From an uncultured Planctomycetales bacterium (lineage in GTDB: Bacteria > Omnitrophota > Gorgyraeia > Gygaellales > Profunditerraquicolaceae), in NCBI GenBank assembly GCA_964405005.1, contig CAYOMI010000002.1:1-32502 (forward strand): DNA of 32,502 nt, read 5' to 3'. The position numbers were made by a program, and so were the translations under genes. Under the pieces are notes generated by a model, which had not been told where the DNA came from, did no database searches, and was given only the letters and a program-made list of their open reading frames with translations. Positions 1 through 32,474 of this stretch are shown here, piece after piece; the first letter of the stretch is position 1; each line of letters starts with the position of its first letter.

Positions 1-3000
1 ACTCTAGGTAGGCCTTGGCTGGAGGCATCTTTAGGAACATCTGGTTGATAGCCGGTTTTCTTAATGAGCCCATTAAGCAAATCCATCATTTCATCATATA
101 GGGCTCTATGCTCTGCATATATATTTGCTATATTATCTATTTCCTTAATTATGGCCTCAATTCTCTTATTTATATCCGCAGGAGTCTCTCCTTTATCTAC
201 TTTCGCATTTAAATCAAGGAGTTCTTCTTTAATTCTCGCTATCCTTCTTGCAGTTTCTGCTTTTTCCTGAGTATCTCTGACTACTCTTTTGCCGGGTATC
301 TCTACTTCTATTTCTTTCTTCTTACTCTTGGGTGTTACTGCCCTAGGCGTGGCTACTTTTCTCATAAATGCCCTAACCTTATGGGTTATTTTCTCAGTTT
401 CCTCGCGAACCTTTCTATCCAGACCCCTTGCTTCTTGCTTCATTCTATTAACTTGCTTTCTCATCCTTCTATCTTTAATGGGAAGGTCTTGGCTTATTTT
501 ATTTGTTCTTCTGTAATGCTTAACTATTTGCTTAACTATTACTAATATCTCCACCAGTAAAATAGCTCCCAGAACAACTAATGTTATATTATACGGGTTT
601 TTAAAGAAATTAACCCATTCATGAGAAGGCGTGGGGGTTGCCAAGCGATGAGTATCTATTGGTGATGGAGTTTGCGTAATTCCTGTGTCAGTAACCGTAC
701 CAGTCTTTGCGCCTACCAGAGATTCAGGAACATTTAAATTAGTAATATCTATTTTCTGGCCTATATAAATCTTATTGATATCTACAAATCTGGGGTTATC
801 TGCCTGGATTGCTCTGTAACTGTTATAAACCGCGCCATTATCACCCCAGAACTTGCCTGCCAGGAGGGATTTTCCAGTAGTAAGTAAATTTAAGGCATTT
901 AAGCCAATCCTTAACATCTCTACAATATGGCCCCAGGTATCGCCTTTCTGCACTAAAATATAAATCCTGTTACCTTGCTTGATAACTTCACCACAAGAGG
1001 CAAACTCTGGCAAAGCAAAGATAATAAAGGCGGCTACTAAAACTATTACTGTGGGTAAAATTGCCTTTATAAAACCAGAACCTCCATTGCCACCAAAACC
1101 ACCCTCAGGCATTATAGGATTATTAGGTGTTCCGGGTCCCTTGCCACCTGAACCGCCATCACCCCCAAAACCACCCTCAGGCATTATGGGATTATTAGGT
1201 GTTGTAGGTCCGGGATTAAATTCAAAGGTGGATTGTTCAAGATTAGGAGTGGAAGTTGTATCTGGAGCAGAAGGAGTAAATTCAAGGTTAAATGCCTCAG
1301 TTCCGCCAAATTCAGGCGTGGTTGAGGTAGAGGTTGGGATAGAAATAAAAAGTAGGTAGTCGTGTTCTTTTTTTGCTTCTCTTAATTCTTCTCCTGTCTG
1401 TGTTTTTTCTGTTTCCAGTATTGTTTCTTGAGAATCTACTTTTAGGGAGGCAGGAATTCTTGTGGGCTTATTATTTTTAGGAAGATTCTGGGTTGCTGCC
1501 CTCTGAAGATCTTCTCTTTTCTGTTCCGGGGTGCGATAAATCCCACTAGTGTTAGACGCAGAAATAGAACCTTGCTCAGTTCTCTCACTTAAAGTTCTTA
1601 CACCTTGGGCATCTAGGCTTTCTTTAGTTAGATTGCCTGCTTTGCCTTCTGCTACTACCTGCTCTTTGCCCACTAATGCTTGGGCAGTAGAGTCAGTATG
1701 CACAACTGCATTGGATTTACGGTTTAAAGATTTTGCAAATTTGCGCGCTTGTGTTAAACCACGACCAGCGATTGCGCTAATCGCTGTCGCCACTCTGATA
1801 CCCGGATGGTAAGTGCGGTGTGCTCCTCCAATAATCTTGATTAACTCTTTTACGCTCAGGACATTATCAGTTATCTGACTTAAGCCCAGGCCTAAACCAA
1901 AGCCCTGATGAATCTGGCCTATGCTGCTACCTGTCGGCGCAGGGATATTAGTAGGCGTCTCAGGTAAAGGTGCTGGCTGTTGCCTCTCTGCGGGAATATT
2001 CCTGCTAGTCTGGTGCTCTCCTACTATTGCCCTGGCCTGTGTAATTAAGGTTTCCTTATTGTCTAAGATATATTGCCTGGACGCAATACTCTCTGCCATC
2101 TGCGCCAGTAAGTCAAATATATTAGAAAGGAACTTTTCCTCAGTTAAATTATTATTGAATTCTAAGCCATTAGCCAACCTTTGCAGGTGCTCATCCGTAA
2201 TCTCGCCTAAATTATCAAAAGCCAGAGCCACTGCCACTGCCTCTTTTACCTCCTTAGATAAATAGGGATACAACTGGTTAAGTTGTGTATGCCAATACTC
2301 ATGCTTTAAATTCCAGAGTCGGAATTGACTGGATTCAGTGTGGAATTTAGGTTCAATGATTAAGCGGCCTTTCTCATCAAGAGAAGTAACAGGCTTAGCG
2401 TTAAACATCATAAAGATTGAATTGGCAGCACTGGGAACCGAAACTCCAAAGTCAGGCGCAATTTGTTTAATCTTACTGCTTAATTCCGTATGCGACTGCT
2501 GAAGTAATGTATCCTTTACCCATTTTGCTAATTCCTCTGAGTTCTCTATTTTTGCTGCACCATTTCCATTGTTAGTTATGGCGGCTGCTAATCTATCAAA
2601 GAAGGATAAGGCCTGATTATTTCCCTGCGTGGCTTCTTTTAATATGGCGGCTAAAGCCAGCCAGAGCACTACTTCTTGGTATTTAGAAGCATTTACTGCT
2701 GCCGTAAGATTTACGGCTAATTTACCATTTCTTATGCCATTATTTGCAAAATATGTTTCCGCAAGCAAGCGCTGCGCTTCAAATTCTTTAACCACCTCTT
2801 TATCTTCACCATTGTGCGCCTTGGCCAGCAGTTGATGATAGAAAGCAGTCATCTTTTTATTTAAAGGATCATTTTCTTTATATTCTCCATTCTTTTGGGC
2901 ATCCTCTATAACTTTAGCCTGCTCATCAAGGTAACTCTCAGTTACATAAATAGAGCCATTCTCCTGCCAGGTCTCTCCTACAAGAATGGAAATTTCTCCC

Positions 3001-6000
3001 TCTTTTAATGAAGTTTCCTGGCTAACATAAATTACCTTTCCTGACGTATTATTTATCTTATACACTACCAGGCCTGCAGGATGTGTCTTTCCTTCCTCAT
3101 CTTCTAACTGCAGATCTGACCAGCGCACGATATAATTATCTTTGATACCCTTTAAGTTATTTATCCTCTCTAAGATTACCTTTCTCTGCACAGGAGTAAG
3201 TTGTTCTAAATCAAAAATCTTTTCTTGCTCATCAACCACTTGACCATTTTTTATAGAGGCAGTAGCAGCTTTCTTCCATACTTCTACCTCAAAAACCTCT
3301 AATGCTTTCTTAACTACCTCTTCATCACTATCCTCTAATAATTCTGTAAACGCATCAACAACCTCATCATCTACCTTAATCTTCCTATTCTCTACCATAG
3401 CCAGCAGCGCAAGTTTACCTTGCTTATCAAGGCTGCCTTCCTCTAACATTTCTAAAGCAACTTGCTCTGCCGCTTCTCTATTTTGTGCCTTCGAAACAAC
3501 ATTTGCCCAGAATCTTATTTCTACATCCTCGTCATTTAGATATGTGTCTAAATCTTGACCTGCCTCTGCCAATAACTGCGCTGCTTTTCTACGGATGGAG
3601 ATAATCTTTTCTTGATATTGCTCATTGTTAACCTTTCCATAAGTACCCTTATTGAGCAAATTCAATAGTTGTCCTTTTACAGCATCAATATTTCCGCCAT
3701 TTTCTAACACTCCTAATAACCTTTCTATTTCTTCTAACTGCGTAAGGTTCGGCCTCTTTATGTTGTCTAATATAGTTCCCAATTGGCTGGGTTGTTTTGT
3801 CTCTCTTAAGAAATCTAATAGCAAGGTGCGGATTTCTGGATTCTTGAATTCACTGACATTAACCTCTACTTTTAAGTTAGGTTCTGCCTTTAAGTTAGGT
3901 TCTGCCTTAACAAATTCAGAAATAATCCTGAATACTATCTTAGCAAAACTCACCTCCAGTTTATCTCGGTCAAGTTTCATCTCTTTATGTAGAGAATTTA
4001 TTAAACTATCTATCATATTTTGGGTCGGTATCACTTTCTTATTCTCCACCAAGAAGGAGATGGTTTTTTCTAAAGCAGAAATGAGTTCTTGAGCGTCTCT
4101 ATTATCTCTTAAACTGCTAATAAGGTGAATAATTTCATCGGCCTTAACATTAATCTCATTTATTACTGTCTTATAGTTGTGCTCAACTAAGATATCTAAA
4201 AGATGATTAAATTTCTCAGTTAAGATAGTGCATAATGCAAGATTGCCTTCCTCTATAATAATACCCCAGGCAGAATTGATTTTTTCTTTATCTGCTTTTT
4301 GTGGATATTTGGCATAAACTGTTAACAAGGCAATATTTACCCAAATCTTTATATCTTTATCTGGGTCATTCAAATAACTTTCGATAGCGGATAAATCGCT
4401 TTCCACCAATGAAGCCAATACCTGCAGGGCAATAATTTTATCTGCCTTATCATCAGTTGATAATTTAGTTTTCATAAATTCTCGAGCAGTCTCTGGACCA
4501 AACTGGTTAATAAATGAAGATATCTCACTTTCAGAAAGTTTACCTTTCTTATCGCCTATTCTCTTTAGTTTCCTGTAACTTACGGTAATATCATTCTTTC
4601 TTCCTTCTAAGCAGTCAATAATCTGCTTAATCTCTGATGCATTAAGTGCTTTTTGAACATCTGAAATTTCAACTTTATTCTTTTCTGCCCAAACCTTAAA
4701 TAATCCTGCGGCTTCATTCCTTAAAGCAGCATTTTCCTCTTTTAGTAAGAATACTATCTGCGTAATGGTGGTTCTATTAACATAATCAAGCAATTTTTGT
4801 AATTTCTGAACGGCTTTAATCTCCATCTCTGGCTGGCTGTTTCTTAAAGCAATGTTTACCAAGGCCTGGACTAAATTCTTACCAAATTCTTCTCTCTCTT
4901 TTCCTTCTTTGACTTTGCTAAGATTAATGTTTTCTATTGTCGCCATTGCTTGCATATGGAACGAATCTAATTTTATATCCTCTTGTTCTTTCTTGCTCGG
5001 AGCATTGACAATTGTTTCTAATATAGATAAAGCCAAGGAAGGATTATTATCAGCGATTTTTGCAATTATGTCCATTGCCTGCTGGCGCACACCAGCACTC
5101 AATTCGTTATTAAGCACAATCTGGCTTAATGCTGGTAAAGGATTGTGTTGCTGGGAAACTGTAGAGATATCCTTTACCCTGCCATCTAAAAATGCCGCTA
5201 AGGCCTCAGCCAAAACATTATTTCTCTTATCTTTATCTTCTTCTCTTAGGCCTTGCTGTAATTTTGTGGCGTAATAATCCACTGGGTGGGTCACGGTTAG
5301 AGTGTCTTCTGTCTTTACATCTACTCCTGTATTAAATGCTCCAGTAAAATTAACTTTCTTAATTGCTTTGCGCAGTGTCTTTTCTTCGCCATCCCAGGCA
5401 TCAAGACCAATTTTTCCTTTTATAATTTTTAAATACTCTACATCCTTGATTGCGCCGTTATCGCTATCAAAGAGGAAATGATAGAAGGCCAATTTTCTAA
5501 CCTGCTCGGTTCTGGCACCATCACCCATTAAAATCAAATCCAGAACTCTTTCTTCGTAATTAGTACTTTCAAAAGTAACTTTATTATTTTCCCTTTGCTG
5601 TCTTAAAATTTCTTTTGCTTTAAGATAATCCTCAATGTCCTTTTGGCTAAATACAGATTTATTGAATTTAAATACGACCCTGCCAGTGTATAATGAGCCG
5701 ATGCCTGCAGCAATTGCTCCTCCTATTCCTGCTGCAATGCCGCCTATCCCACCGATAAAAATAGCCGCAACCAAAAGGCCTGCACCTATAACCGCAAAAC
5801 TTATAGAAGCAAAACTTGGTTTCCAAGAAGAAGTTAGCCGCAAACCGAATTTTCCTGCATAATCACTACTGGCAAATTCCTCTACTTTGGCTTGGGCCTG
5901 GGCTTCAACTGCTTCTCTAAAGATATATATCTCGTTGCCATTTCTGGCAGAAAGCGGTAGACCTTCAGCTACCTTTTCTCTACGCAGAGTAATAACCTCG

Positions 6001-21000: not shown

Positions 21001-24000
21001 TGGCGATTTTGCTTCTTATCTAACTTTTCTAATTTCTTATTCAATTGGTCTATTTGAAAATTTATTTCACCAATTTTATTTTGCCGCTCAACCTCTTTTT
21101 CCTCAATATCAGAGAGATGTTTGCCTAATAAAGCAAAACGGCCATTGCCAAAGCCTAAGATGGGCGCACCTTCTTTTGTAAAGGAGGCGGGTTTTTCTAT
21201 TTTTACTTTAGGGCCTACGCCATCGTCAAAACTATCTGCAGTAAGAAAATCATACGTATAATCAATGCGACCTGTCTGTGCGTTATAACCCTTAATTCTG
21301 CGTATAAAGGAGGCATCCTCTAATTTTCCCAAGCCGCTTCTATTGGTAGTATCACGCTCACCTTTTTTATCTACTTGCACATAGTCCGTAAGTAGATTAA
21401 TTTTATTAAACTGTTCTCCTACGCCCTCAGTAATAACAAAACCGCGCGAATCAAATTCTATTTTATTAATCTTACCGGGAAGCAAAGATATAAGATTGTA
21501 CTCTTCAATTTCGCCTTTTCTCCTTGTTTGGATACCTACTGGAATATTAGTAACTTCTGTGCCTGCGGTATTATTCAGGAAAACATCCTCAAAATTTCCC
21601 GAAAGACTGACATAGGGAGAAGTTAAATTATTCAGGATGAAATCTACTTTTTGTTGATTTACCAAATGCCTGCCGCTTTCTTCTTCTACTCTAAGATTCT
21701 CTTCAAAGACTGGGCCGTGGTGTCTCTGGTAAGGTGGTGGAGAAGTATTGTTTTGGTTAAAGATCTCTTCGGCTGTAGGAATTTTTTGGTCAATAAGCTG
21801 TTTAAAAATTAAAGGATGTTCTTGATTTATCTGAATTATAGGCTTGCCATTTTCAAGGCGGCCTGTTATAGCCAGGTCTTTTATATCTTTTCCCACTAGC
21901 ACCTTGGCATTTTTTGCTGCAAAACTTAAAAACCCTGTTCCATTCGCCCAGAAATCCACGCCTTCTAAAAGCATTTTATCTGGGCTAATTGCAATCTCTC
22001 CGACCTTCTCTCCCTTCTTATTCACTACTGGAGCCTTTATCGTTCCCTTCTCATCCTTAATAAAATAAGAGCCTAAAGCCGTCCCATCCACCCAGCCGGA
22101 TTTAGCATTAGTTCCTGCCACAATACCTTTATCGCCAAAGGTAAAGGTTCCTACGCTACTTAGAGCCGGATTATCAACCCTGCCCCACTTATAATCCTTC
22201 GCCGGATTATTAGAGTCATTCGCTGCCGCAGCAATAATATAACCTCCTGTGCGCTCATGCTTATCATTCACAAAAGCATGCGTGGCCCACTCTGTCATCG
22301 CCCCTTCTGCTCTATAACTTGTGTCCTTATCAAATAAAAGCCGGTTATTTACGCCTACGCTTACCCAATTATTTTTAATTTCAGTCTCCAAGGCTGCCAC
22401 TGGTTTTAAACTGCCATCAGCTGAGCGGATTTCGTAGAGGCCTTTATTAACCAATTCACGAATAAAGAAATCTGGTTGACGGTTGGAATCAGCGTTTATT
22501 GTGGTAGGACCTGTCTCTGCGGGATTCTGCACACCCGCATTATTATTCCCATTTCCCATCTCAATCTTGGGAATAAGCTGGGTTAAATAATAATCTTTGA
22601 CTTGCCAAATCTTTCCATCCTTGTATCTTATATCAAGGTGTTCATTTATGGGTATAGCTTTTAGTTCTTTGCCTGTCTTTTGCTGGTAATAACCCCTGAC
22701 CTCTGCAGAGCCATCTCTCAAAGAATTATTATAATTACTATCTTCTTTCCACCCGCCTGTGGGTGTATAGTTAGCGCGCCAGATATCCTGCCCGGATTTT
22801 GCGCTATAAAGATACGCCAGATTAGCCACATCATTACTCACAGTCCTTAGCCACTCGGGTTTACCCCATTGCATATCGCCTTGGCTGGTGACACTGTATC
22901 GAAGCGCATTATTTTCAGATAATCCAGGAGTAACGGTAATTTCTTTAGTTTGAATATTGCGCAGAACATTGGTAGCGTCTTCAAAGCCCATTTGAACCTG
23001 GCCAGTCGGCACCTGCCAGTTACCCCAAATAGCGGGTGTATAATCCAGGCCTCTTTCTCCTGCACCTAAATAGAATTTTGCTTTGCTATCTTTCTTAATT
23101 CCTTGAATTAAAAGGGTATCCCTATTGGGATTTGTCAACTTACCCGAACCTCCTGCGCCGATTTTTTCTACTAACTGCCGGGTGTAAGCGCTATTATCAC
23201 TTCCTGCACCCATTCCAGTAGGTATATTTACGTGGCTGGGCATCTGAAAATCACCTTGGTTCTCAATTGCTAAAAGCCGACCCTTATTATCCCCAATCAG
23301 TGCTGTAATATCAGCAGTGCGACGGTTAGTATAATCTGAACCCATCCAGGATTCTGTGCTTCCATACAAACGAACCTTCGAATCTTGTCCTGTCTTTATA
23401 TTAACCGCCTTTTCTAGGCTATCCACACTCCCATCTACAAACCAACCCTGTTTAAGGGGCATTCTTGCTAATGCTTTTCCCTGATTAAGAGTTCCATAAA
23501 ATACACGGTCCACACCTTGACCGGTAATATTAACACGCGCGGTTTCACCATTGTCATAGGTGAATGATAGAGCATAAGAACGCTCTGGCCCCAATTGCGG
23601 GCCCACGCCCACAATTACGGGTTTATTTGCTGAGGAATCGGGATTAATGAAGAATATATCTTGGCCTTGACCAGCCGCAAATTTAATTTTATCCCCCACT
23701 CCTGGAGTAACGCCCATATTGGTAAACCTGATAGTACTGTTTGGCTGCGGAGTCAGGGTATAAATACTTTGCGACCACTGCGTAGCAGTTACATTCATTG
23801 ACTCATTATATTTGGAAGGAAGCAAATTTCCTGCGGGGTTAGAATATGCCTCAGGAACTACTGGGTTGCCAATCGCCCTGCCATAAGGCTGCATATCCCA
23901 GACTAGAGGGGTGGAAATGCGGGCATTATAGGAGAGGTCATTAAAATATTTCCCTACCCAGACCGCCATCTCTCCGCTTACCGGGCCGCTATAAGAAAGA

Positions 24001-25415
24001 TTATTCTTAAGGTCTGAAGCAGTATTTGTGCCCACAAAAGGGATATCCTTAAAGTAATCCTGTCTCTGTAGAGTTATTTCCTGATTTTTATAGGTAGCGC
24101 GGTTAAGTCTCTCCTGATCATAATAAGTATAAATAGGCCGGTCTATGCCTGAGGTTACTGAGGTAGTAGTGCCGGTATTTGGATTGTTATATTCGGTCTG
24201 AAAGCCCCATACCTCGCGGTAGGTTGTCTGGGGCAAACCATTAGGCCCAAAATCCGTCCAAGAAGGCCCCACTGCTGTGTTAGAGGTAATAGTATGGGTA
24301 TAGTTCATATCCTGAATGTGGGTATCACTGCGTGGGGCATCAAAGGCGCTATAATTTGTATATCCGCTGCCGTAGTTTGAGCCGTAAAAATCGCTGGAGC
24401 CATAAGAATCGCTACCATAATCATAAGAATCGCTAACCCAGTCACCCGCTCCTTTTATCTTTTTGGCTTCTGCAGGCTCCAGTAACTCTGTATTCTCATC
24501 TAATTTGCTGAATAAGCCAAAACCTGAGAATTCAGCCAGGAATTTTTCTTTAGGTAGAAATTCCTCTTTATGCTCATTGCTAAAATAGACCTTATCCTCA
24601 GTGATTTTGGTTACCAGAATATAATGGTCGCCATTGACATGGGCAATGAAAGGAGTTAAGTTAGGGGATAGTCGAAGGTCCGTGGTCGTTAGTTTAACAG
24701 GATAGAGCGTATATCCAAAAAATTCAGAGGCCTTAGAAAGGGCATATAAGGAGTTTCTGATAATTTCCGGATTTCCTTCAGGTTTAACCACCTCATTTAA
24801 GATATCCACTGTCAAGGCCATTACTGCCACATCCTGCTCCACTACCTGAATACCTTTGTAGGTTAAGAAATCATATAATGCCTTTGCTCCACAAGGCTTT
24901 CCTTTAAGCCAGTTATAGATTTCCTCAATCCGCTGGCGAGACATATTTAAGGGTTTTTCTAATTCTATAGTCAAATTATCAGAAATCTTTATGGCATTTA
25001 TCGGCTTTCCAGCAATATCAGTAAGGATATTTCTTATGGCTAAAGGGATGTCTACTTGCTGAATATTCTTTAAATAGGTAGGTGCAAATGTGCTGGCTGC
25101 GGCTGGCTTTTGCCAGAGTATGCGCCAGTCATATTCTACTGCCTGGGCCACCTGCTCAGGCAGAAAAACGCAAACCACAATAAAAGCCACAATTCTAATC
25201 CAAATTTTTCCCGCAAAACTACTTTTAAACTTGGGCGGGATCCCGCCTTTTTCTAAATTTGCCTGGCGGGAAAAACTGGAATGAAATTCTTCGGCAGGCT
25301 GTGTCTGAGGAGTGCTTTCTTTATTATTATTTTTACCTATATGAAAAAGGGGAAGAAATAGTTTCCCCCTTTCCCCCAATATTCTTATTATTTTTTCGAT
25401 GAATTCCTTCATCAT
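1..25415 (-). CDS. Giant multi-domain membrane/envelope protein. The 5' end is complete and the 3' end runs off the left window edge (at least 8,471 codons open; last full codon at 5..3).
   Basis: Codons of this minus-strand frame occupy plus positions 3n..3n+2. ATG ATG sits at 25415/25412 and is preceded by an in-frame TAA at 25433..25431. I hand-translated the frame and re-verified it base by base near 24.9k, 24.6k, 21.0k, 18.2k, 16.1k, 12.5k, 12.2k, 9.2k, 5.7k, 2.3k, 1.1k, 0.9k and 3..120. It was always the same frame, gave sensible protein sequence and met no stop. The supplied track has no minus-strand fragment in this frame anywhere in 1..25415; its three small minus ORFs are all in another frame. 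That is what is expected if the frame never closes inside the window. Most + strand track ORFs here share one frame (start = 1 mod 3) and are S/L/F-rich, typical of antisense shadows. Confidence 0.9.
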   Translation of the reverse strand, partial: MMKEFIEKIIRILGERGKLFLPLFHIGKNNNKESTPQTQPAEEFHSSFSRQANLEKGGIPPKFKSSFAGKIWIRIVAFIVVCVFLPEQVAQAVEYDWRILWQKPAAASTFAPTYLKNIQQVDIPLAIRNILTDIAGKPINAIKISDNLTIELEKPLNMSRQRIEEIYNWLKGKPCGAKALYDFLTYKGIQVVEQDVAVMALTVDILNEVVKPEGNPEIIRNSLYALSKASEFFGYTLYPVKLTTTDLRLSPNLTPFIAHVNGDHYILVTKITEDKVYFSNEHKEEFLPKEKFLAEFSGFGLFSKLDENTELLEPAEAKKIKGAGDWVSDSYDYGSDSYGSSDFYGSNYGSGYTNYSAFDAPRSDTHIQDMNYTHTITSNTAVGPSWTDFGPNGLPQTTYREVWGFQTEYNNPNTGTTTSVTSGIDRPIYTYYDQERLNRATYKNQEITLQRQDYFKDIPFVGTNTASDLKNNLSYSGPVSGEMAVWVGKYFNDLSYNARISTPLVWDMQPYGRAIGNPVVPEAYSNPAGNLLPSKYNESMNVTATQWSQSIYTLTPQPNSTIRFTNMGVTPGVGDKIKFAAGQGQDIFFINPDSSANKPVIVGVGPQLGPERSYALSFTYDNGETARVNITGQGVDRVFYGTLNQGKALARMPLKQGWFVDGSVDSLEKAVNIKTGQDSKVRLYGSTESWMGSDYTNRRTADITALIGDNKGRLLAIENQGDFQMPSHVNIPTGMGAGSDNSAYTRQLVEKIGAGGSGKLTNPNRDTLLIQGIKKDSKAKFYLGAGERGLDYTPAIWGNWQVPTGQVQMGFEDATNVLRNIQTKEITVTPGLSENNALRYSVTSQGDMQWGKPEWLRTVSNDVANLAYLYSAKSGQDIWRANYTPTGGWKEDSNYNNSLRDGSAEVRGYYQQKTGKELKAIPINEHLDIRYKDGKIWQVKDYYLTQLIPKIEMGNGNNNAGVQNPAETGPTTINADSNRQPDFFIRELVNKGLYEIRSADGSLKPVAALETEIKNNWVSVGVNNRLLFDKDTSYRAEGAMTEWATHAFVNDKHERTGGYIIAAAANDSNNPAKDYKWGRVDNPALSSVGTFTFGDKGIVAGTNAKSGWVDGTALGSYFIKDEKGTIKAPVVNKKGEKVGEIAISPDKMLLEGVDFWANGTGFLSFAAKNAKVLVGKDIKDLAITGRLENGKPIIQINQEHPLIFKQLIDQKIPTAEEIFNQNNTSPPPYQRHHGPVFEENLRVEEESGRHLVNQQKVDFILNNLTSPYVSLSGNFEDVFLNNTAGTEVTNIPVGIQTRRKGEIEEYNLISLLPGKINKIEFDSRGFVITEGVGEQFNKINLLTDYVQVDKKGERDTTNRSGLGKLEDASFIRRIKGYNAQTGRIDYTYDFLTADSFDDGVGPKVKIEKPASFTKEGAPILGFGNGRFALLGKHLSDIEEKEVERQNKIGEINFQIDQLNKKLEKLDKKQNRQVIEQQINTLKKELSGLGYEPSKTDKPARADQTISHKINIGVSGNTLTGDNQRGIFSHQGTFSTQATLDGYYANAALMENGKEITSFERIALGLQNIVDETGNRIGEGRVYVLPYGEEHKKGEKARVLEFNSHEQLFTLGAGEQFEAVNMLVNYPGVREDGRIKPINKQNRKGTEIQEMAAKLSGVSFVREITGYNKESGVEYKYKKDSVSAEGFDNGRENGRIEKHIRGLVSDDGKYVGLDFGTARIDLFAKRTLDYDTPKDKKAPEDRHNKKDDKPLFNVKDRVSEIRRTKERILTADNQIAIFSHQGTFSASAGLDGYYGNITFTKESVAPYFEIAIAKQMGTAGPTYLKPYGMNNKKPVEIKFDANERPYNKGVGERAEGVNHLITDKDGNIIGKLFNISYEFEVLGKDEKGTIQYRYKPGSFSALKYFDAEKGKWLDKIPAVIDKELGLPLLDINGTQKIFFHQGAFNNQSSFLDLVMGKETKQESELRPGQKWIGYDREGDELLFWVDANKDVHSALLRDRNGKKRSSDEQYGIIARKTLSPYARFKLKTLRENPRGWKSWFCWGGFNLTDTYDPSEFKLEEKIVEGQKVTMLHMKGKGYLLEPQDIALIDYNKDKKNTNAGVALTKAISRLFGVNADAEPIEGTGVLALFATKKNQQLVAVLLNGGFQPYNISPLSKNASEKEKKIEQGISVSPPKAKGKTEIIIPEYITAGGQRTEGHWLSASKYKINWQEGQSSPSITLLRGGYRYDRQYISGNTQNVKDTTTVTFEHRARSEAQVVAINGNEVEHREQIVGGSPNDQKLYFKNGSYVLFLGQRGIVLSGADIGFYSHLSTDSKKWLTDLYNQLFERRDPKSQYIPIENLIVRLGVSGGLTWDNFGQQMQKLNISQELKEKFILDLIYNNTNLHIGGINPDKDSKKGLNCVGISLLTCELMEKIGTNKYSIVYMTRDDNPIGHVSLHNGKDIIELAIRGSGDSSLEKRYKEAGWDLSKVWVIGKDAEGRVVREHLLQMLAGKSKIVCGFQNKDVKKVEMAKRSLEYGRITEAAQLMEGLTDRSVPGADAMYHNLGISYLLGKDNQKAKEYLSIASNLGDNSMLSILGILRQIENNPNAKINVRRNPDGSIGIQVVVSNKSYTAKAAYREVFTTDPLSKGVNHFTGGLEIKEDENNVLGYYYKGQPVQIVHYANDGRVFFKYSKSGDNDKFYKLSPESNEAIELDRECVELATEDLMKARHGENQLLRGQLQQRNVSLEEVLAAADLIMQSKNSSNKKDQRLYDIAKSTSIWIGETQKDLQDYINRSWWITRKLVPIEKALYAPNLNLALMVTGAEIEFPFRLAGTAFNSARGIVESPGWALEKIIIYACMPSYWRHKEVFHEQNKALGEEIWNMWRGDWHPFTWAKEQREGYLKAAGWTGNAFEILAELLLLRKVGSSLNLSSKANWLLSPATKGSAALSGLAFAGGELLVNKTLNMIWNQEPLWGWDVNKKYLPQTLITFGTIFGLHMFNIHLNNRAAAKGLLQKTADGRFIPTENIAPNLKPAAIKFTTYKGIVNNAILFGNVDMATNNVLHAPELNNASFGDTVKFNIQSFTGLDFLSLGGGIKDVFRGQAGRGLVKIVQGLKGESWMAGAKGGAFFGGIIGFAGGVANYTDFAKSKFWTENRFGKILNFSFNPYYGVVDDRLIINRWTWAAQRTFTLATWTATAVAARLAIDLDSFKTNEWKEAAMEAATWGAYARFLASSGKLSEFLRGNRNLTGKFSDYSGLIRNVGVIATGAGINIGRDFGIGYLEKKTGRSFGAEPLVYEDGNLISGNGLIPGKASPGQIVVSGIRGAVYAKLVQFALSKAGNKYFNNVGKNVKHYGTLANEEVKLAEGPKQRLVHQFVAEPLKGTVKWPFISLVMDKAKPVWDTTIGAVEKTVDHVFYINMDQPVWGWKFADKWYPFRKEEQDPITRQIHYRPLTAGELFSIDRAQALQYIAAAKHGKFMGVLLRIAMNTPRELAPETGYQSLSVKLGASRGVATKIVSAADWAFAKNKWLSALAPGKLGKLAAIMNKNSIVAEIDSLFYISGYVTGVARILDSIKRAGLYTDVLTNRVYNNFTNRENFEKGMANYKAVAPSSKEENAIGWVRLAIKTGNILPEHLELLLVHEGRGPQGPGEINRGATLKEFQRFNKYSSIAEISRKEAGIQEKIEREFPSPSKRKIILSGEENAPPEGEVTIYGSSEKPISKVYRGEKGIRDAFNSGDKEAAKKAIISRAEILLPEQTSKQKAIQKHLEIFLFGKGRATQQAEDALENSGASQETMQQLKALRDKANRLMPLMEEYAQLRGFNAGLIERNPKLLTSKSLKVVTETETGSETVEFKVGEDKLSARIDIGELKRGQGAERIAEVLIERQRSVGGLREVKIGYKQYEGSDLVSESEREIKSGAETEQGKIRKINIGDQIEVELTGELRSRYESLVIDFATRRDNYSKALGKPISKTEKDYYQARYDYWQRYLEGAGQEELAKLHSKADSLHKGYVEGYFARLKTQTSNPDAEATRKMDRVRDYYLQTGKDIPDTLDINDPVLISTIARFALFKANSMKEIQKLKKQFKETPANGQEEEIITLKVKGGYRYEFKRSEIEKIINDPNSGLEFQLQHKLRTRVFGELVDNGKIGEAQQLLEKICNTKDGESVKGEDLLVDATLKKAAKGLIAQISTLQKAQEVGLINNEGKLNVEFNPNGTMKPKSGILNANLDNFIREFNQSITSFEGRSDQAIRADLAKEAKGIIGKGKYAGDYYFDLFKVGLKTYAVEAKLRFGEDGKIKEPEKTTEGLQMLCGLFKEKNPLLRSGGGKTLPGMIELVIHALWGAEGVDKEGKINFRKNMTLVVRDGEQVSKAKYKEIFDTFGLGLVPIGNGEANLLEALFKDPKAVILIDDVSFGHLHNILRGSFREVLNTQDVIRFDEFHLHFASDNAYITAEGKIPLSTDIIRTTKEAWDKIKQLIHQGRIEQLSFQKVKENQRPGFYYDALMEKVVINAKAREIFERELHLSPEVTQAVLRARFYPEGQNGRYKVINEGKDKGGILVVERGRVEPDKVMSDKYLLAALAAKEAHRVDPTKLYTSPANSQATLTEILKFSPHTSVLGFSGTLDSVELMLKFQIGRGIEKISETKFDGTSVISHTSDSKKLAGDIVQKILEGRRNGLILVRDSQLYQELQKQLSKKSQIELKEININSKPQDIDTLSKEWINVQGLDNGKIRVILSNEQGATGVDYQGNINLVIADGQNWRLTRLLQGIHRNNRKGEDAERWVYFQAPSTDNMPKYLLNEINARINSRYKGEKVIEIKGRSGDVEGSLTNAERLDVEGLLTNAKRLEVVEIHKAISNQLRDAAYSTFIIEKIKNMLVTAEAAEDHKSFRALGEILKDAIDYKNKPTWDDLLVSQYPDSAEKQIERILKSVATQAKGYMGLILRSSDINNPLVKLNAKETLTDIDVAVKGYNNITADSQRTINGVSSFREIVAAGKALKGNLFTEYIQANNLRTTDAKAARVINYLNTQREQAGLSKLSESQGIAITRLLDTVILSNGTRGSPELLRHIVPFAPSLKPVLEPVLEKLAPDLSSGQSLSPVSIQGITQIYTTINDSLFTSSASQTPREQRLADADFVTSLIYPEYTFNHLASVVGAYDRIRLLPDIRQNILDVQDILKPQGATTSQSQSQSGLLRLEDKQILVQDFIDNPYYYLGGVTRTGEKWWNPVAIIKEHRLRNRTSFLEQSQSFVLNNNRLYYWTEARPTRNLLVKAASMDEAKLEEQIKKLFSPIQKMEGEAKQAQERTMALAFSLRNFSWRIKEEKKYREVYNRLLEGLLSATDKQTVEFYSDQLRSLDKRISLGYDEFLKAREANFGNKKVPFVDVVETLRKSKTDTSGTAWIELWREKLGLSGYRQPGKWITFTPFGMGLGGLTTRGLGWLTWIPYSIAATATGFLIHFAQKDPDSYVNHRLNFGRANLDATILDTIHKKKQESPDFVLGLKEADEIAEEIVKKFAKRGIKRDDVIKTIVTFSNPFIAKDTLDIRAIRKLSDKRVEKYLSFLSEEEQKTYRYLRSLPTLVDEDYAHKREELCGKARSVALGDMLKENLEKTLQVSDKPEKHEDCVTRMREALQELSEKQDDHFKKIAEDWLKDRKNRKAKSLFEGDATTYVGGELKKQAKQIFKAIEAAEKHFGFDKSQPGIATTLDDNQKAEVREDFYYTIKKVLEEKKSAEEKVKEIEALNNKVRRDLLVHLTAKQELRKTLNTEGKDMVSGFGREGITEKFINTQLEKIKDERVKAELRSALKETLKKLDTLVHRWAEAGITRDEWVSEEIKQEDTAVKDELNKIEQQLKNLAQAINNIQGQSLDYSQNIKQLNEILKNLKRQEAETVQVRQEDLNAVSAVIDAVIRSSAVTHRQRIKDLVVLYKGLIKDDKNEIRSVEEALKELDKLEEDAVLTNSRNDALGRIPVYLANLKSLLATPDNDKDIQLMRLQAAKDILAGEHTRLAREVLQKMQEELKKIEKQVKDAQSVIEIRNKGTQKRVDELSKEEKVALFEYWRKSFQPDLAKFDTQNVNASLQTAIKQIFGIDKTITEQNYEEQFNKFLFLMDLGSKGEVRFTRTQRIWDIGYEELKHRYEKILSQEKVSFYNRHAEESKGKVILYAQKDSLREFKDKLQRNELKAEKEKRDFLKEIGLENLSKRLLLMNAREVEKVLQDISSQQDIPYLVDSLNETLGIDRKEAIDVILAYALEEKLHKVNNIPKLLEKLHKKTYTYRVKTDDIYKEFYAKDSQPLLIMKANGDFVTLLFARPDMWVVLDEKGTVQTVQPLPEKQFYLFNSTKLPQDIFGRGIGSWGRHLIKSKEMQKLSTTEIPISDKEEFTQKVLNDSRLNKVISRYAPYLLSKEEVRSDKTKRIEKAKELIAQAKVSQALQEAADNIASLNQVATRLLGLMQQAGLDVEQINGLLLDKGVVDVGDNFRLVYLNGRIEAFYAEKEGEVITLRREKVAEGLPLSARNGNEIYIFREAVEAQAQAKVEEFASSDYAGKFGLRLTSSWKPSFASISFAVIGAGLLVAAIFIGGIGGIAAGIGGAIAAGIGSLYTGRVVFKFNKSVFSQKDIEDYLKAKEILRQQRENNKVTFESTNYEERVLDLILMGDGARTEQVRKLAFYHFLFDSDNGAIKDVEYLKIIKGKIGLDAWDGEEKTLRKAIKKVNFTGAFNTGVDVKTEDTLTVTHPVDYYATKLQQGLREEDKDKRNNVLAEALAAFLDGRVKDISTVSQQHNPLPALSQIVLNNELSAGVRQQAMDIIAKIADNNPSLALSILETIVNAPSKKEQEDIKLDSFHMQAMATIENINLSKVKEGKEREEFGKNLVQALVNIALRNSQPEMEIKAVQKLQKLLDYVNRTTITQIVFLLKEENAALRNEAAGLFKVWAEKNKVEISDVQKALNASEIKQIIDCLEGRKNDITVSYRKLKRIGDKKGKLSESEISSFINQFGPETAREFMKTKLSTDDKADKIIALQVLASLVESDLSAIESYLNDPDKDIKIWVNIALLTVYAKYPQKADKEKINSAWGIIIEEGNLALCTILTEKFNHLLDILVEHNYKTVINEINVKADEIIHLISSLRDNRDAQELISALEKTISFLVENKKVIPTQNMIDSLINSLHKEMKLDRDKLEVSFAKIVFRIISEFVKAEPNLKAEPNLKVEVNVSEFKNPEIRTLLLDFLRETKQPSQLGTILDNIKRPNLTQLEEIERLLGVLENGGNIDAVKGQLLNLLNKGTYGKVNNEQYQEKIISIRRKAAQLLAEAGQDLDTYLNDEDVEIRFWANVVSKAQNREAAEQVALEMLEEGSLDKQGKLALLAMVENRKIKVDDEVVDAFTELLEDSDEEVVKKALEVFEVEVWKKAATASIKNGQVVDEQEKIFDLEQLTPVQRKVILERINNLKGIKDNYIVRWSDLQLEDEEGKTHPAGLVVYKINNTSGKVIYVSQETSLKEGEISILVGETWQENGSIYVTESYLDEQAKVIEDAQKNGEYKENDPLNKKMTAFYHQLLAKAHNGEDKEVVKEFEAQRLLAETYFANNGIRNGKLAVNLTAAVNASKYQEVVLWLALAAILKEATQGNNQALSFFDRLAAAITNNGNGAAKIENSEELAKWVKDTLLQQSHTELSSKIKQIAPDFGVSVPSAANSIFMMFNAKPVTSLDEKGRLIIEPKFHTESSQFRLWNLKHEYWHTQLNQLYPYLSKEVKEAVAVALAFDNLGEITDEHLQRLANGLEFNNNLTEEKFLSNIFDLLAQMAESIASRQYILDNKETLITQARAIVGEHQTSRNIPAERQQPAPLPETPTNIPAPTGSSIGQIHQGFGLGLGLSQITDNVLSVKELIKIIGGAHRTYHPGIRVATAISAIAGRGLTQARKFAKSLNRKSNAVVHTDSTAQALVGKEQVVAEGKAGNLTKESLDAQGVRTLSERTEQGSISASNTSGIYRTPEQKREDLQRAATQNLPKNNKPTRIPASLKVDSQETILETEKTQTGEELREAKKEHDYLLFISIPTSTSTTPEFGGTEAFNLEFTPSAPDTTSTPNLEQSTFEFNPGPTTPNNPIMPEGGFGGDGGSGGKGPGTPNNPIMPEGGFGGNGGSGFIKAILPTVIVLVAAFIIFALPEFASCGEVIKQGNRIYILVQKGDTWGHIVEMLRIGLNALNLLTTGKSLLAGKFWGDNGAVYNSYRAIQADNPRFVDINKIYIGQKIDITNLNVPESLVGAKTGTVTDTGITQTPSPIDTHRLATPTPSHEWVNFFKNPYNITLVVLGAILLVEILVIVKQIVKHYRRTNKISQDLPIKDRRMRKQVNRMKQEARGLDRKVREETEKITHKVRAFMRKVATPRAVTPKSKKKEIEVEIPGKRVVRDTQEKAETARRIARIKEELLDLNAKVDKGETPADINKRIEAIIKEIDNIANIYAEHRALYDEMMDLLNGLIKKTGYQPDVPKDASSQGLPR
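3..520 (-). other. Basic, K/R/E-rich helical (coiled-coil-like) tail of the giant protein; continues beyond the window
   Basis: Hand translation gives ...KHYRRTNKISQDLPIKDRRMRKQVNRMKQEARGLDRKVREETEKITHKVRAFMRK...RIARIKEELLDLNAKVDKGE...IYAEHRALYDEMMDLLNGLIKKTGYQPDVPKDASSQGLPR. Confidence 0.5.
528..590 (-). other. Predicted transmembrane helix (C-terminal side of the LysM-like module)
   Basis: Hydrophobic run NITLVVLGAILLVEILVIVKQIV, followed by the basic stretch KHYRR. Confidence 0.6.
745..965 (-). other. LysM-like peptidoglycan-binding module with an internal insertion
   Basis: Verified codon by codon: YILVQKGDTWGHIVEMLRIGL...AVYNSYRAIQADNPRFVDINKIYIGQKIDI. The LysM hallmarks are present (Y-x-V-x-x-GDT-hydrophobic-x-x-I and N-x-x-x-I-x-x-GQ-x-I-x-I), but the module is about 30 aa longer than a canonical LysM. 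Confidence 0.5.
1005..1070 (-). other. Predicted transmembrane helix (N-terminal side of the LysM-like module)
   Basis: Hydrophobic run KAILPTVIVLVAAFIIFALPEF, verified in frame. Confidence 0.6.
1074..1214 (-). repeat. In-frame 72-nt (24-aa) tandem duplication in a Pro/Gly-rich linker
   Basis: ccaaaaccaccctcaggcattat... recurs with a 72-nt period (starting at 1093 and 1165). The protein copies are GPTTPNNPIMPEGGFGGDGGSGGK and GPGTPNNPIMPEGGFGGNGGSG. A T/S/P-rich stretch lies upstream (TSTSTTPEFGGTEAFNLEFTPSAPDTTSTPNLEQSTFEFNP). Confidence 0.85.
2289..2303 (-). other. HExxH motif (HEYWH), a candidate zincin metallopeptidase site
   Basis: Verified codons give RLWNLKHEYWHTQLN. This is a motif-only call; I did not identify a third zinc ligand. 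Confidence 0.2.
3290..5270 (-). other. HEAT/ARM-like alpha-solenoid repeat region
   Basis: Recurring L-x-D-x-D-x-x-[IV]-[RK]-x-x-A-like units: LNDPDKDIKIWVNIALLTVY (~4340..4390), LNDEDVEIRFWANVVSKAQ (~3500..3550), LEDSDEEVVKKALEVFE, LKEENAALRNEAAGLFKVW and ELSAGVRQQAMDIIAKIADNNP. The whole region is helical in composition. Confidence 0.45.
3872..3907 (-). repeat. Perfect in-frame 18-nt tandem duplication (KAEPNL x2)
   Basis: ttaagttaggttctgcct at 3872..3889 is repeated exactly at 3890..3907. Confidence 0.95.
5690..5830 (-). other. Glycine-zipper transmembrane segment(s), probably a hairpin of two helices
   Basis: Verified sequence: SFASISFAVIGAGLLVAAIFIGGIGGIAAGIGGAIAAGIGSLY. Confidence 0.6.
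7000..8750 (-). other. Coiled-coil-rich K/E/L/Q helical region
   Basis: Examples: IKQEDTAVKDELNKIEQQLKNLAQAINNIQGQSLDYSQNIKQLNEILKNLKRQEAETVQVRQEDL and LAREVLQKMQEELKKIEKQVKDAQSVIEIRN. The heptad-like spacing was judged by eye only. Confidence 0.45.
9130..9240 (-). other. Predicted transmembrane hairpin
   Basis: Verified sequence: PGKWITFTPFGMGLGGLTTRGLGWLTWIPYSIAATATGFLIHF. Confidence 0.55.
10941..11012 (-). repeat. In-frame 36-nt tandem duplication (12 aa)
   Basis: taatctcttggcattggtaagcaaaccttctacatc (10941..10976) versus taatctctcggcattagtaagcgaaccttctacatc (10977..11012), with 33/36 identical. The protein copies are DVEGSLTNAERL and DVEGLLTNAKRL. Confidence 0.9.
11150..12520 (-). other. 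SecA-DEAD-like / SF2 helicase-like P-loop ATPase domain
   Basis: Motif I is LLRSGGGKTLPG (GGGKT = 12495..12509, verified). Motif II is VIRFDEFH (12159..12176, verified). A motif III-like LGFSGTL lies at ~11611..11637, a motif V-like ILSNEQGATGVDY at ~11241..11275 and a motif VI-like RLLQGIHRNNRKGEDAERWVYF at ~11155..11200. The order, spacing and flanks (GLGLVPIG..., ILIDDVSFGHLHNILR) parallel the SecA motor (TGEGKTL / DEVDSILIDEA / GMTGTA / TNMAGRGTDI / QLRGRAGRQGDPG). Confidence 0.65.
15650..16950 (-). other. Gly/Trp-rich hydrophobic block with several predicted membrane helices
   Basis: Hydrophobic runs: GWALEKIIIYACM, SAALSGLAFAGGELLV, TLITFGTIFGLHMFNI, GGAFFGGIIGFAGGVANY (verified at 16080..16139), WTWAAQRTFTLATWTATAVAARLAI and NVGVIATGAGINIG. 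Confidence 0.5.
17700..17905 (-). other. TPR-like repeat pair
   Basis: MAKRSLEYGRITEAAQLMEGLTDRSVPGADAMYHNLGISYLLGKDNQKAKEYLSIASNLGDNS. Confidence 0.4.
18090..18240 (-). other. Cys...His core resembling a transglutaminase-like or papain-fold cysteine peptidase
   Basis: Verified sequence: KKGLNCVGISLLTCELMEKIGTNKYSIVYMTRDDNPIGHVSLHNGKDIIEL (Cys codon 18216..18218, His codon 18117..18119, 33 aa apart). It resembles the G-x-C-x-x-F-A...GIPAR-x-V-x-G...HAW-x-E pattern, but the third catalytic residue is not clear. Confidence 0.3.
19560..21600 (-). repeat. Three divergent tandem protein modules (~160-250 aa each) plus the start of a fourth
   Basis: Recurrent blocks: GIFSHQGTFSTQATLDGYY (~20790..20850), IAIFSHQGTFSASAGLDGYY (~20035..20100) and KIFFHQGAFNNQSSFLD (~19560..19615). 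Also GVGEQFNKINLLTDY / GAGEQFEAVNMLVNY / GVGERAEGVNHLITD, and SFIRRIKGYNAQTGRIDYTYD...SFDDG / SFVREITGYNKESGVEYKYK...GFDNG / YEFEVLGKDEKGTIQYRYK...YFDAEKG. DNA similarity remains locally (agagaaggttccctgatgagagaaaat versus agagaatgttccctggtgggagaagat). A coiled coil (QIDQLNKKLEKLDKKQNRQ, 20960..21130) separates modules 1 and 2. Confidence 0.7.
24395..24440 (-). repeat. 21-nt in-frame duplication in an S/Y/G/D low-complexity linker
   Basis: cataagaatcgcta occurs at 24401..24414 and again at 24422..24435. The protein is DWVSDSYDYGSDSYGSSDFYGSNYGSGY. Confidence 0.7.
24500..24930 (-). other. Peptidase C39-like (papain-fold, bacteriocin-processing type) cysteine peptidase domain
   Basis: Verified sequences: LKGKPCGAKALYDFLTYKGIQV (Cys codon 24891..24893), ...FIAHVNGDHYILVTKI (His codon 24624..24626) and TEDKVYFSNEHKEEFLPKEKFLAEFSGFGL. 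These match the C39 layout C-G-x-x-A-L...G, H-[FY]-hydrophobic-V-L, and D/N...hydrophobic...F...W/F-x-G. Confidence 0.6.
25150..25210 (-). other. N-terminal signal-anchor / transmembrane helix of the giant protein
   Basis: KIWIRIVAFIVVCVFLPEQVAQAV lies about 70 aa from the start, after a polar basic N-terminus. Confidence 0.6.
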
Positions 25416-25452
25416 TTTATAAACTATTTCTTAAACTCTTTAATAACCTTCT

Positions 25453-25508
25453 AAAACAAAAACCGGATTGTCAAATACTAACTTTTGCGTCGGTATTCGG
25501 CAACCCGG
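25453..25508 (-). terminator. Intrinsic-terminator (attenuator) hairpin plus U-tract in the giant-gene leader; overlaps the 3' part of the riboswitch aptamer
   Basis: In the RNA, CCGGGUUGCCGAAUAC pairs with GUAUUUGACAAUCCGG over 16 positions (1 C-A mismatch, 2 G-U) with a 14-nt loop, followed by UUUUUGUUUU (plus 25453..25462). The ATG lies about 37 nt downstream. Confidence 0.7.
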
Positions 25509-25587
25509 CTATCCTGTTACAATAAATTTTATTAGGACCCGCGGCTTTGCGCCCCCATCTCACAATGGGTTTGCCCTTTTCGCTACC
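25492..25587 (-). promoter_or_regulatory. c-di-GMP-I (GEMM-I) riboswitch aptamer, copy A (giant-gene leader)
   Basis: RNA: GGUAGCGAAAAGGGCAAACCCAUUGUGAGAUGGGGGCGCAAAGCCGCGGGUCCUAAUAAAAUUUAUUGUAACAGGAUAGCCGGGUUGCCGAAUACC. It contains the GEMM-I blocks AGGGCAAACC, a GNRA-capped hairpin (CCCAUU-GUGA-GAUGGG), GGCGCAAAGCC, a second hairpin with a CCUAA receptor-like element, and AGCCGGGUUGCCGA. GGUA...UACC can close P1. Confidence 0.8.
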
Positions 25588-25605: not shown

Positions 25606-25634
25606 AATATAACATTAAAATACTCTTTTGTCAA
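25606..25634 (-). promoter_or_regulatory. Sigma70-like promoter of the giant gene with an extended -10
   Basis: Minus strand reads TTGACA (25634..25629), a 17-nt spacer ending in TGT, then TATATT (25611..25606). The predicted TSS near 25599 sits just upstream of the aptamer. Confidence 0.65.
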
Positions 25635-25774: not shown

Positions 25775-25840
25775 AAACAAAAAGAAGGGGTCTAATGCGC
25801 ACTCCTAGAATATACCACGGGATTTGTCTTGACCCCTTCT
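25775..25840 (-). terminator. Possible terminator of the 2,089-aa gene: 10-bp GC-rich stem, unusually long loop, U-tract
   Basis: AGAAGGGGUC (plus 25831..25840) pairs with GACCCCUUCU (plus 25783..25792) across a 38-nt loop, followed by UUUUGUUU. It lies about 130 nt after the stop codon. Confidence 0.4.
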
Positions 25841-32446: not shown

Positions 32447-32474
32447 ATTATAGCATATATCTTGCCTCTATCAA
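32447..32474 (-). promoter_or_regulatory. Sigma70-like promoter of the 2,089-aa gene with an extended -10
   Basis: Minus strand reads TTGATA (32474..32469), a 16-nt spacer ending in TGC, then TATAAT (32452..32447). The predicted TSS is near 32440. Confidence 0.6.

Follow-up and report, generated by a model that had tools for sequence, protein, structure and literature searches.

The 5' 25.4 kb of an Omnitrophota-type giant gene, its predicted c-di-GMP-responsive leader and an OmpA-domain neighbour

The DNA studied here comprises positions 1 to 32,502 of contig CAYOMI010000002.1, and this whole stretch of 32,502 nucleotides (nt) is called the window. Its minus strand carries the first 25.4 kb of a giant gene, a short regulatory leader in front of that gene and, further upstream, a gene for a protein of 2,089 amino acids (aa) that has an OmpA-family domain and a leader of its own (Table 1). 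We consider it likely that the window represents the 5' part of an Omnitrophota giant gene with the leader that regulates it and a conserved partner upstream, and that these work by the mechanism proposed in the last section.

The giant gene does not appear in the track of open reading frames (ORFs) that accompanied a preliminary description of this DNA. That description had read one minus-strand frame from an ATG at 25415, with an in-frame TAA at 25433..25431, to the left edge of the window, and our translation bears it out. Both codons are present, the translation begins with MMKEF, and none of the five codons between the TAA and the ATG is a start codon. The reverse complement of 3..25415 contains no TAA, TAG or TGA in 8,471 codons; the frame is open to the left edge of the window and the C-terminus is missing. 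The protein is at least 8,471 aa long. The gene is unlisted because its ORF runs off the window, and the program that made the track skips any ORF that continues past an end of the source. For 1..25415 the track shows short ORFs only, of which those on the plus strand are antisense shadows of the giant frame. A recoded genome with a reassigned stop codon was also considered, and it is ruled out by the lack of in-frame stops of any type.

The remaining two minus frames contain 916 and 909 stops per about 10,800 codons, or about 8.4% per codon. At this frequency the probability of an open stretch of 8,471 codons is about e^-740, which excludes a chance origin. The G+C contents at the three codon positions of the giant gene (0.49/0.36/0.36) are equal to those of the neighbouring 2,089-aa gene, and the pattern is kept in every 500-codon segment. 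When codon usage was compared with that neighbour in 5-kb segments, the correlation was r = 0.88-0.94 in frame and 0.2-0.4 out of frame. This uniform coding signal, along with the giant Omnitrophota homologues described below, supports the earlier claim of one real coding gene of more than 25.4 kb. The giant gene is a genuine coding gene of the kind published as Omnitrophota giant membrane proteins. The likeness to Omnitrophota giant genes, proposed earlier from composition and mosaic architecture, stands on both homologues and architecture. The companion statement that proteins of this length are rare in bacteria needs a correction for this phylum, in which the length is ordinary and proteins of up to 147,155 aa have been reported.

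Table 1. Coordinates of features on the minus strand of the window; assignments to function are predictions
Feature	Position	Strand	Basis and remarks
Giant ORF	3..25415	-	8,471 codons, no stop; 3' end beyond window; homologues collinear over residues 7-7658
Sigma-70-like promoter of giant gene	25606..25634	-	TTGACA-17-TATATT, extended -10 TG; 11/12 matches; consensus match only
c-di-GMP-I-type aptamer, giant 5' leader	25495..25584	-	Rfam RF03167, 71.4 bits, E 3e-15; ends 79 nt before ATG
Predicted intrinsic terminator (expression platform), giant leader	25453..25509	-	5' arm is 3' part of aptamer; folding z-score -3.7
Transmembrane helix 1 / signal anchor, residues 67-85	25161..25217	-	Kyte-Doolittle 19-residue mean 2.28; Lys-rich tail before
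Conserved N-terminal module with C39-type cysteine peptidase, residues 58-325	24441..25244	-	Cys175, His264, Asn280; PF03412
Gly/Asn/Ser/Thr-rich stretch, about 2,400 residues (326-2750)	17166..24440	-	Composition
Conserved Gly-rich, weakly hydrophobic module, residues 2946-3606	14598..16580	-	Motif KWPFISLVMDKAKPVWDT
SecA-like ATPase NBD1-PPXD-NBD2, residues 4270-4800	11016..12608	-	Walker A GGGKT 12495-12509; DEFH 12159-12170
Post-motor, largely helical Lys/Glu-rich regions, residues 5475-6466 and 6587-7658	2442..8993	-	BLASTP to P0026 and P0032, E 1e-25 to 5e-82
Strong transmembrane helix, then glycine zipper, residues 6536-6578	5682..5810	-	Kyte-Doolittle mean 2.43
Transmembrane helix 8118-8136, LysM-like stretch about 8150-8230, transmembrane helix 8276-8294, Arg/Lys-rich coiled tail	534..1064	-	Kyte-Doolittle means 2.68 and 2.72
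2,089-aa gene	25972..32241	-	N-terminal hydrophobic Gly/Ala/Thr-rich region and OmpA-family peptidoglycan-binding domain
Sigma-70-like promoter of 2,089-aa gene	32447-32474	-	Consensus match
c-di-GMP-I aptamer of 2,089-aa gene	32303-32423	-	61.6 bits, E 2e-12; ends 61 nt before ATG
Predicted terminator of 2,089-aa gene	32278-32318	-	Hairpin overlapping aptamer
Terminator-like hairpin and U-run after upstream gene	25775..25839	-	-22.7 kcal/mol, z-score -2.5

Family and architecture of the giant protein

A protein search with residues 1-5000 of the giant returned 22 matches of 3,047-7,593 aa, mostly partial and nearly all labelled Candidatus Omnitrophota or Omnitrophica. The boundaries of the shared modules were then determined by local BLAST. 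Residues 60-323 are common to 21 of the 22 matches at 46-68% identity, and the most distant match, P0022, shares residues 110-323 at 33% identity. Further into the protein, residues 61-1344 match P0002 (and P0007 over 63-636) at 35-39% identity, residues 2946-3606 match P0001 and P0003 at 33-36%, and residues 4286-5294 match P0001, P0004, P0005 and P0009 at 27-28%. Pfam found Peptidase_C39 and a marginal Helicase_C (23.6-23.9 bits) in the giant and no other family above threshold; NCBIfam, PHROGs and single-sequence PDB searches of the protein gave nothing significant.

The N-terminal module was also scanned against one genome per GTDB species. This yielded relatives at 91 genomic loci, 80 of which were kept, with identities of 55-73%. 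The genomes that bear the module are nearly all Omnitrophota metagenome-assembled genomes; automatic labels assign a few of them to Planctomycetales, and one bears the label Margulisiibacteriota. Of the ORFs at 82 loci, 78 reach the end of the fetched DNA without closing, and 39 already measure at least 3,000 aa. The number of relatives and the openness of their ORFs make the N-terminal module a hallmark of giant genes in Omnitrophota. The window holds no phylogenetic marker, and homology of this one module, almost all of whose relatives are so labelled, suggests Omnitrophota as its probable source. In three loci (L010, L011 and L046) the ORF with the N-terminal module closes at 407, 2,157 and 2,796 aa, respectively; these ORFs may be pseudogenised, frameshifted or truly short.

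The giant was shown to begin with a transmembrane helix followed by a C39-type peptidase domain in which the Cys and the His are intact. The sequence of helix 1, WIRVVAFIVVAVFLPEQVAQAVEYDWR, is conserved in 23 aligned proteins and is continued by a near-invariant PEQVAQAVEYDWR. PF03412 matched with 36 bits against a cutoff of 22 when the protein was scanned as a tile. The C39 Cys and His noticed in the preliminary description correspond to Cys175 (PCG) and His264 (DHY), which are invariant among the 23 sequences, and a profile of the module aligned both catalytic segments with the LahT/PCAT double-glycine protease 6mpz (E 0.03). The domain thus resembles the C39 domains of PCAT and AMS proteins (PF03412; 6mpz LahT) in being papain-like with an aligned catalytic Cys and His. 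It differs from them in lacking a fused ATP-binding cassette transporter and in carrying Asn at the position of the third catalytic residue. Since it follows a transmembrane helix, the C39 domain of the giant probably lies outside the cytoplasm.

Hydropathy revealed strong hydrophobic helices at residues 67-85, 6536-6554, 8118-8136 and 8276-8294, plus several weaker ones. With the basic tail inside, this pattern would place both the C39 domain and residues 326-2750 outside the cytoplasm. No domain was recognised in residues 326-2750 by Pfam, NCBIfam, PHROGs or PDB search. The Gly-rich module at residues 2946-3606 would then have to return the chain so that the ATPase lies in the cytoplasm. This module is also matched by P0024, P0036, P0039 and P0086 in BLAST, its hydrophobic segments have mean values of 1.0-1.4, and it is a candidate membrane-embedded segment upstream of the motor. 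At the other end, the Arg/Lys-rich tail after residue 8294 would fit a cytoplasmic end. The Gly-zipper helices seen earlier are there too, GGIGGIAAGIGGAIAAGIG being found after the helix at residues 6536-6554. Within the Gly-rich module, a motif KWP(F/V)(I/V)S..M....P(V)WDT at residues 3360-3400 (about 15216-15338) is kept in P0024, P0036 and P0039, which are of unrelated length. In every case several hundred residues separate it from the SecA-like motor downstream. It may be a functional partner of the motor, and it has no known counterpart.

The presence of a peptidase at the N-terminus raises the alternative of a polyprotein, in which the C39 domain would cut the giant, possibly at Gly-Gly sites, into independent proteins and there would be no functional giant. 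The same possibility has been raised in published work, and it agrees with the family-wide conservation of the Cys and His of a double-glycine-type protease and with the existence of Gly-Gly-rich linkers, such as residues 8060-8110. However, no conserved cleavage motif was identified between the modules, and hydropathy puts the C39 domain across the membrane from the motor. Published proteomics on the giant of V. archaeovorus were inconclusive on cleavage. We regard a polyprotein as unlikely and retain the reading of one functional giant protein.

Predicted c-di-GMP riboswitch leaders

The leaders of the giant gene and of the 2,089-aa gene, which are an addition to the preliminary description, both consist of a promoter-like site, an aptamer of the type that binds cyclic di-GMP (c-di-GMP) and an overlapping terminator. 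Both aptamers score above the Rfam threshold for RF03167, which is 59 bits. Of the sigma-70-like sites in the 7.2 kb that were scanned, the two with the best match each lie just upstream of one aptamer. To form the terminator, CCGGGUUGCCGAAUAC, which makes up the 3' halves of aptamer P3 and P1, can instead pair with GUAUUUGACAAUCCGG, and UUUUUGUUUU follows.

A covariance model was made from four aptamers and run on 1.23 Mb of related loci. It detected 80 aptamers, including those at 9832-9913 in L002 and 2618-2704 in L003 and 76 more in L004-L083. In 67 of 80 loci an aptamer lies on the strand of the gene no more than 600 nt upstream of the C39 match; in six further loci it lies 1.3-7.5 kb upstream. 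Seven loci have no aptamer, two of them lacking upstream sequence. The distance from the end of the aptamer to the first ATG is 70-206 nt in 68 loci. Among 79 distinct aptamers, 94.5% of the positions pair and 10 pairs show compensatory changes, and the observed covariation was not reached by any shuffle. Both P2 and P3 covary.

The ligand-contacting positions are G, A and C in both window aptamers and in 70 of 80 relatives, with the middle position being A in all 80. We take these three positions to be equivalent to G20, A47 and C92 of Vc2, and the 'GGC' variant class is presumably A47G. The G/A/C combination corresponds to the canonical c-di-GMP pocket, although it is the variant family RF03167, not RF01051, that scores best. 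A hairpin and U-run that begin inside the aptamer follow 75 of the 80 aptamers. In an alignment of 72 leaders, 88.8% of the terminator positions pair; sliding the partner lowers this to 25-45%. Compensatory changes occur in 7 of the 16 pairs. Since aptamer and terminator share a strand, ligand binding would exclude the terminator, and an ON switch is predicted. Both leaders in the window are predicted to be c-di-GMP ON switches.

In all these respects the leaders resemble c-di-GMP-I (GEMM-I) riboswitches of RF01051 and RF03167: they exceed the Rfam gathering score, keep the canonical pocket, covary in P2 and P3, use a terminator as the platform and precede a gene for an envelope or surface protein. 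ON switches of the c-di-GMP-I class are found upstream of adhesin and pilus genes in Firmicutes, Bc2 of Bacillus thuringiensis being an example. What differs is the setting, as the aptamers here stand before genes of at least 25 kb in Omnitrophota and at about 90% of the loci of one family.

A leader that senses another ligand, whether 3'3'-cyclic GMP-AMP (3'3'-cGAMP) or the ligand of the 'GGC' variant, or that acts as an OFF switch, is quite unlikely. The best score of the variant family and an A at the G20-equivalent position in 5 of 80 related aptamers would speak for another ligand, but the canonical G/A/C of both window aptamers and 70 of the relatives, and the invariant A at the A47 equivalent, are at odds with it. 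As for an OFF switch, the 3' strands of 75 of 80 aptamers are overlapped by the 5' arm of the terminator, a layout that belongs to ON switches. In GEMM-I RNAs an A at G20 is associated with selectivity for 3'3'-cGAMP, so the few giants whose aptamers carry it may be controlled by another dinucleotide.

Most loci also share a conserved CUUAnUAA(A/G) motif that lies after the terminator U-run and before the start codon; in the window it reads GGUUAUUAAAG (about 25436-25447 on the minus strand). It bears no resemblance to a Shine-Dalgarno sequence.

Neither West-Roberts et al. 2023 nor Nielsen & Lui 2026 mentions a riboswitch at giant genes, and a full-text search of the searchable literature found no paper that links riboswitches to Omnitrophota giant genes. 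We lean slightly towards the view that a c-di-GMP ON riboswitch controls nearly all Omnitrophota giants of the C39 type, a role not described so far, and at this locus the OmpA-domain gene too.

The SecA-like motor and the continuity of the gene

The ATPase in the middle of the giant was first noticed by its P-loop, GGGKT, and a DEFH motif. Both were found, at residues 4303-4307 and 4416-4419, respectively. The conserved motifs of the motor are SGGGKT, RFDEFH, GFSGT, SNEQGATGVDY and QGIHRNNR, with about 180 residues inserted between the second and the third. The SecA equivalents, which we take to be GEGKT, DEVD, GMTGTA, TNMAGRGTDI and GRSGRQG, come in the same order. A profile of five sequences matched only DEAD-box helicases (E 0.02), and the model was poor, with a predicted local distance difference test (pLDDT) of 54, yet SecA was the top Foldseek match. 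An exhaustive profile search of 1.84 billion proteins found 118 representatives of the motor family, mostly within proteins of more than 2,000 aa; Mfd/TRCF-type helicases formed the weak tail of this search.

The alignment was improved to 14 sequences by combining residues 4270-4800 with 13 of the 118 representatives. Against the PDB, the resulting profile matched SecA of T. maritima (E 8e-8), SecA2 (E 6e-5) and SecA of T. thermophilus (E 9e-4), and no family but SecA was below E 0.01. The AlphaFold2 model from this alignment reached a pLDDT of 77.6 and a predicted template-modelling score (pTM) of 0.73. In Foldseek its top 27 matches were all SecA or SecA2, helicases appearing from rank 28 with E values about seven orders of magnitude weaker. 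The best match, substrate-engaged SecA (6itc_A), had an E value of 8.8e-17 and a template-modelling (TM) score of 0.62 over 529 aligned columns. At the level of profile and modelled fold, the mid-protein ATPase was shown to be of the SecA type, NBD1-PPXD-NBD2.

As in SecA (6itc, 1tf2, 3jux), NBD1 has Walker A and B motifs, a PPXD-like insertion follows, and NBD2 has equivalent motifs. The differences from SecA are considerable. The identity is about 15%, the motor sits near residue 4270 inside a giant membrane protein, whereas SecA is soluble and about 900 aa long, the threshold of Pfam SecA_DEAD is failed, and the motor family, with its 118 representatives, is tiny. NBD2 is followed by a long helix in the low-confidence first model and by a conserved helical region in the alignment; no match to the helical wing or the C-terminal domains of SecA was obtained for the giant. 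A canonical secA gene is absent from the fetched loci.

The P-loop module could alternatively be a nucleic-acid helicase of superfamily 2, DEAD-box or Mfd-like, which would have the giant act on DNA or RNA. The deeper profile was significant for SecA alone, whereas the matches that suggest a helicase came from Pfam, which recognises just Helicase_C (23.9 bits), from the shallow profile and from the weak Mfd/TRCF tail. The confident model also fits SecA over the 529 aligned columns, the inserted PPXD-like domain included, with the helicases far behind in the Foldseek ranking, and the motor has equivalents of SecA-specific motifs, GFSGT for GMTGTA and SNEQGATGVDY for TNMAGRGTDI. A helicase is improbable for these reasons, and the SecA-like motor is the assignment carried forward.

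The order of the modules is found again in independent proteins. P0001, a complete protein of 6,595 aa, has the N-terminal module, the Gly-rich module and the motor in the same order as the giant. In BLAST against representatives fetched later, P0026 was collinear with residues 5475-6320 and 6589-6921 of the giant, and P0032 with residues 5724-6466 and 6587-7658. The order of motor, 5475-6466 and 6587-7658 is identical in the giant, P0026 and P0032. These collinear proteins support an unbroken assembly between residues 7 and 7658. Scans of genome contigs and metagenome contigs found no relatives of the last 1,000 residues, and no homologue of residues 7659-8471 was found by a word-indexed search of 5301-8471 or by BLAST against the fetched representatives. 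Misassembly is very unlikely for residues 1-7658; the last 813 residues are without that support.

The long ORF could instead have arisen by misassembly, with parts of several genes fused in frame in a chimeric or collapsed contig, but this is extremely unlikely. In its favour, the source is probably a metagenome, the sole exact match found is a fragmentary 6.7-kb contig that carries just the neighbouring gene, and residues 7659-8471 have no homologue. However, chimeric joins would rarely preserve frame and module order, and here the 8,471 codons have no stop, composition and codon usage are even along the full length, and the module order equals that of P0001 and, after the motor, that of P0026 and P0032, with P0036 also collinear.

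Self-BLAST found no internal repeats in the giant at E 1e-3 or 0.05, just short motifs such as IFSHQGTFS, which occurs twice. Four short in-frame tandem repeats lie in the giant gene, at window positions 1074-1211, 3871-3908, 10934-11012 and 24379-24413. Examples are a 72-nt unit in 1.9 copies that codes for TPNNPIMPEGGFGG.GGSG and an 18-nt unit in two copies that codes for AEPNLK. They have the appearance of local slippage-type expansions within linkers. A search for tRNA genes found none.

The OmpA-domain neighbour and the proposed mechanism

The OmpA domain of the neighbouring protein spans residues 1482-1567 (bases 27541-27798) and scores 52.9 bits in Pfam. The neighbour is homologous (E 4e-60) to the 2,312-aa gene immediately next to the giant P0002, and its homologues directly precede giants at six or more further loci (L003/L079, L057, L026, L071 and L030). 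Its recurrence beside giants in several loci marks it as a recurrent partner. No homology was detected between it and the neighbour of P0001. Further upstream, L002 and L003 carry Tad/T2SSF genes, as published; here the window ends 261 bases upstream of the neighbour. The hairpin that follows the 2,089-aa gene would split the two genes into separate transcription units. An exact copy of the 2,089-aa gene and its riboswitch (L001 80-200) is found on a 6.7-kb contig, Ga0212121_10017619, of the Joint Genome Institute (JGI) data set 3300022556. The organism was therefore present in that sample, the assembly of which breaks at the giant gene.

Omnitrophota giants have been described with C39 N-termini, transmembrane helices, a 'divergent SecA DEAD helicase' and preprotein-binding domains (West-Roberts 2023, 10.1101/2023.11.21.568195; Nielsen & Lui 2026, 10.64898/2026.06.07.730766). 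Type II secretion system (T2SS) and Tad loci upstream, PilZ genes downstream and GGDEF domains within the giants have been published as well. The present giant agrees with them in its single multi-kilobase ORF, its N-terminal signal anchor and C39 domain, its long undomained stretches, its transmembrane helices and its mid-protein motor of the predicted SecA type, and also in its probable phylum and in the Tad/T2SSF genes upstream at homologous loci. It differs in size, as its length of at least 8,471 aa is under the thresholds of both papers (over 30,000 aa and at least 10,000 aa). It also differs from the two published subtypes. Within its 8,471 codons Pfam finds none of the glycosyl transferase, glycosyl hydrolase, methyltransferase or NUDIX-type domains of the 'Archaeovorin' subtype, and no dockerin or TSP3 repeats of the 'Dockerin-type' subtype.

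We propose the following mechanism. When c-di-GMP is bound, the aptamer would hold the shared strand, the terminator would be blocked and transcription would read through, so that high c-di-GMP would induce both the giant gene and the 2,089-aa OmpA-domain gene. The giant would be held in the inner membrane by its anchor, its N-terminal C39 domain and Gly/Asn/Ser/Thr-rich region being extracytoplasmic, and the Gly-rich module would bring the chain back into the cytoplasm. There the SecA-like motor would spend ATP on exporting or inserting those parts of the giant itself that lie outside the cytoplasm, as has been proposed for this protein class. The C39 domain would process the giant itself or a partner. 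The C-terminal transmembrane helix, the LysM-like stretch and the following transmembrane helix, together with the OmpA-domain neighbour, would tether the assembly to peptidoglycan. The likely role of such an assembly would be that of a c-di-GMP-induced envelope or attachment apparatus in a host-associated lifestyle. The published PilZ genes downstream of giants and GGDEF domains within them (P0018 among our matches) fit a c-di-GMP circuit.

Several points weigh against this proposal. The functional assignments of the giant and of the leaders, ligand identity and ON polarity included, rest on sequence. The topology comes from hydropathy, and the segments that would have to return the chain so that the motor is cytoplasmic are just weakly hydrophobic. 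Pfam SecA_DEAD (PF07517) has no match in the giant even at E up to 10. In the C39 domain, Asn280 takes the position of the third catalytic residue, which is Asp in most homologues, and the 23-sequence alignment contains no conserved Gln before the Cys for the oxyanion hole. The LysM domain of the preliminary description is not established; it is a half-match at about residues 8199-8224 that covers profile positions 19-42 only and scores 13.7 bits, below the PF01476 cutoff of 20.9. At the C-terminal end, the lack of a homologue for residues 7659-8471 leaves that part without external support against misassembly.

The giant alone is one more mid-sized and incomplete example in a class that has been catalogued in thousands, and by itself changes little. 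Two results are of more use. The finding that the motor is SecA-like by profile and predicted fold, in a member in which Pfam does not recognise SecA, supports the idea that giants carry their own translocation motor. The conserved leader most deserves to be pursued. Promoter, aptamer and terminator stand before this gene and before about 90% of its relatives with usable upstream sequence, in some 75 species-level genomes. It offers the first concrete, testable regulatory handle on Omnitrophota giants, and its short RNA can be assayed in vitro without culture. If the prediction is true, c-di-GMP would decide when a gene of 25 to more than 60 kb is transcribed and a giant envelope protein is deployed, and an early checkpoint in transcription would be sensible for so costly a gene.

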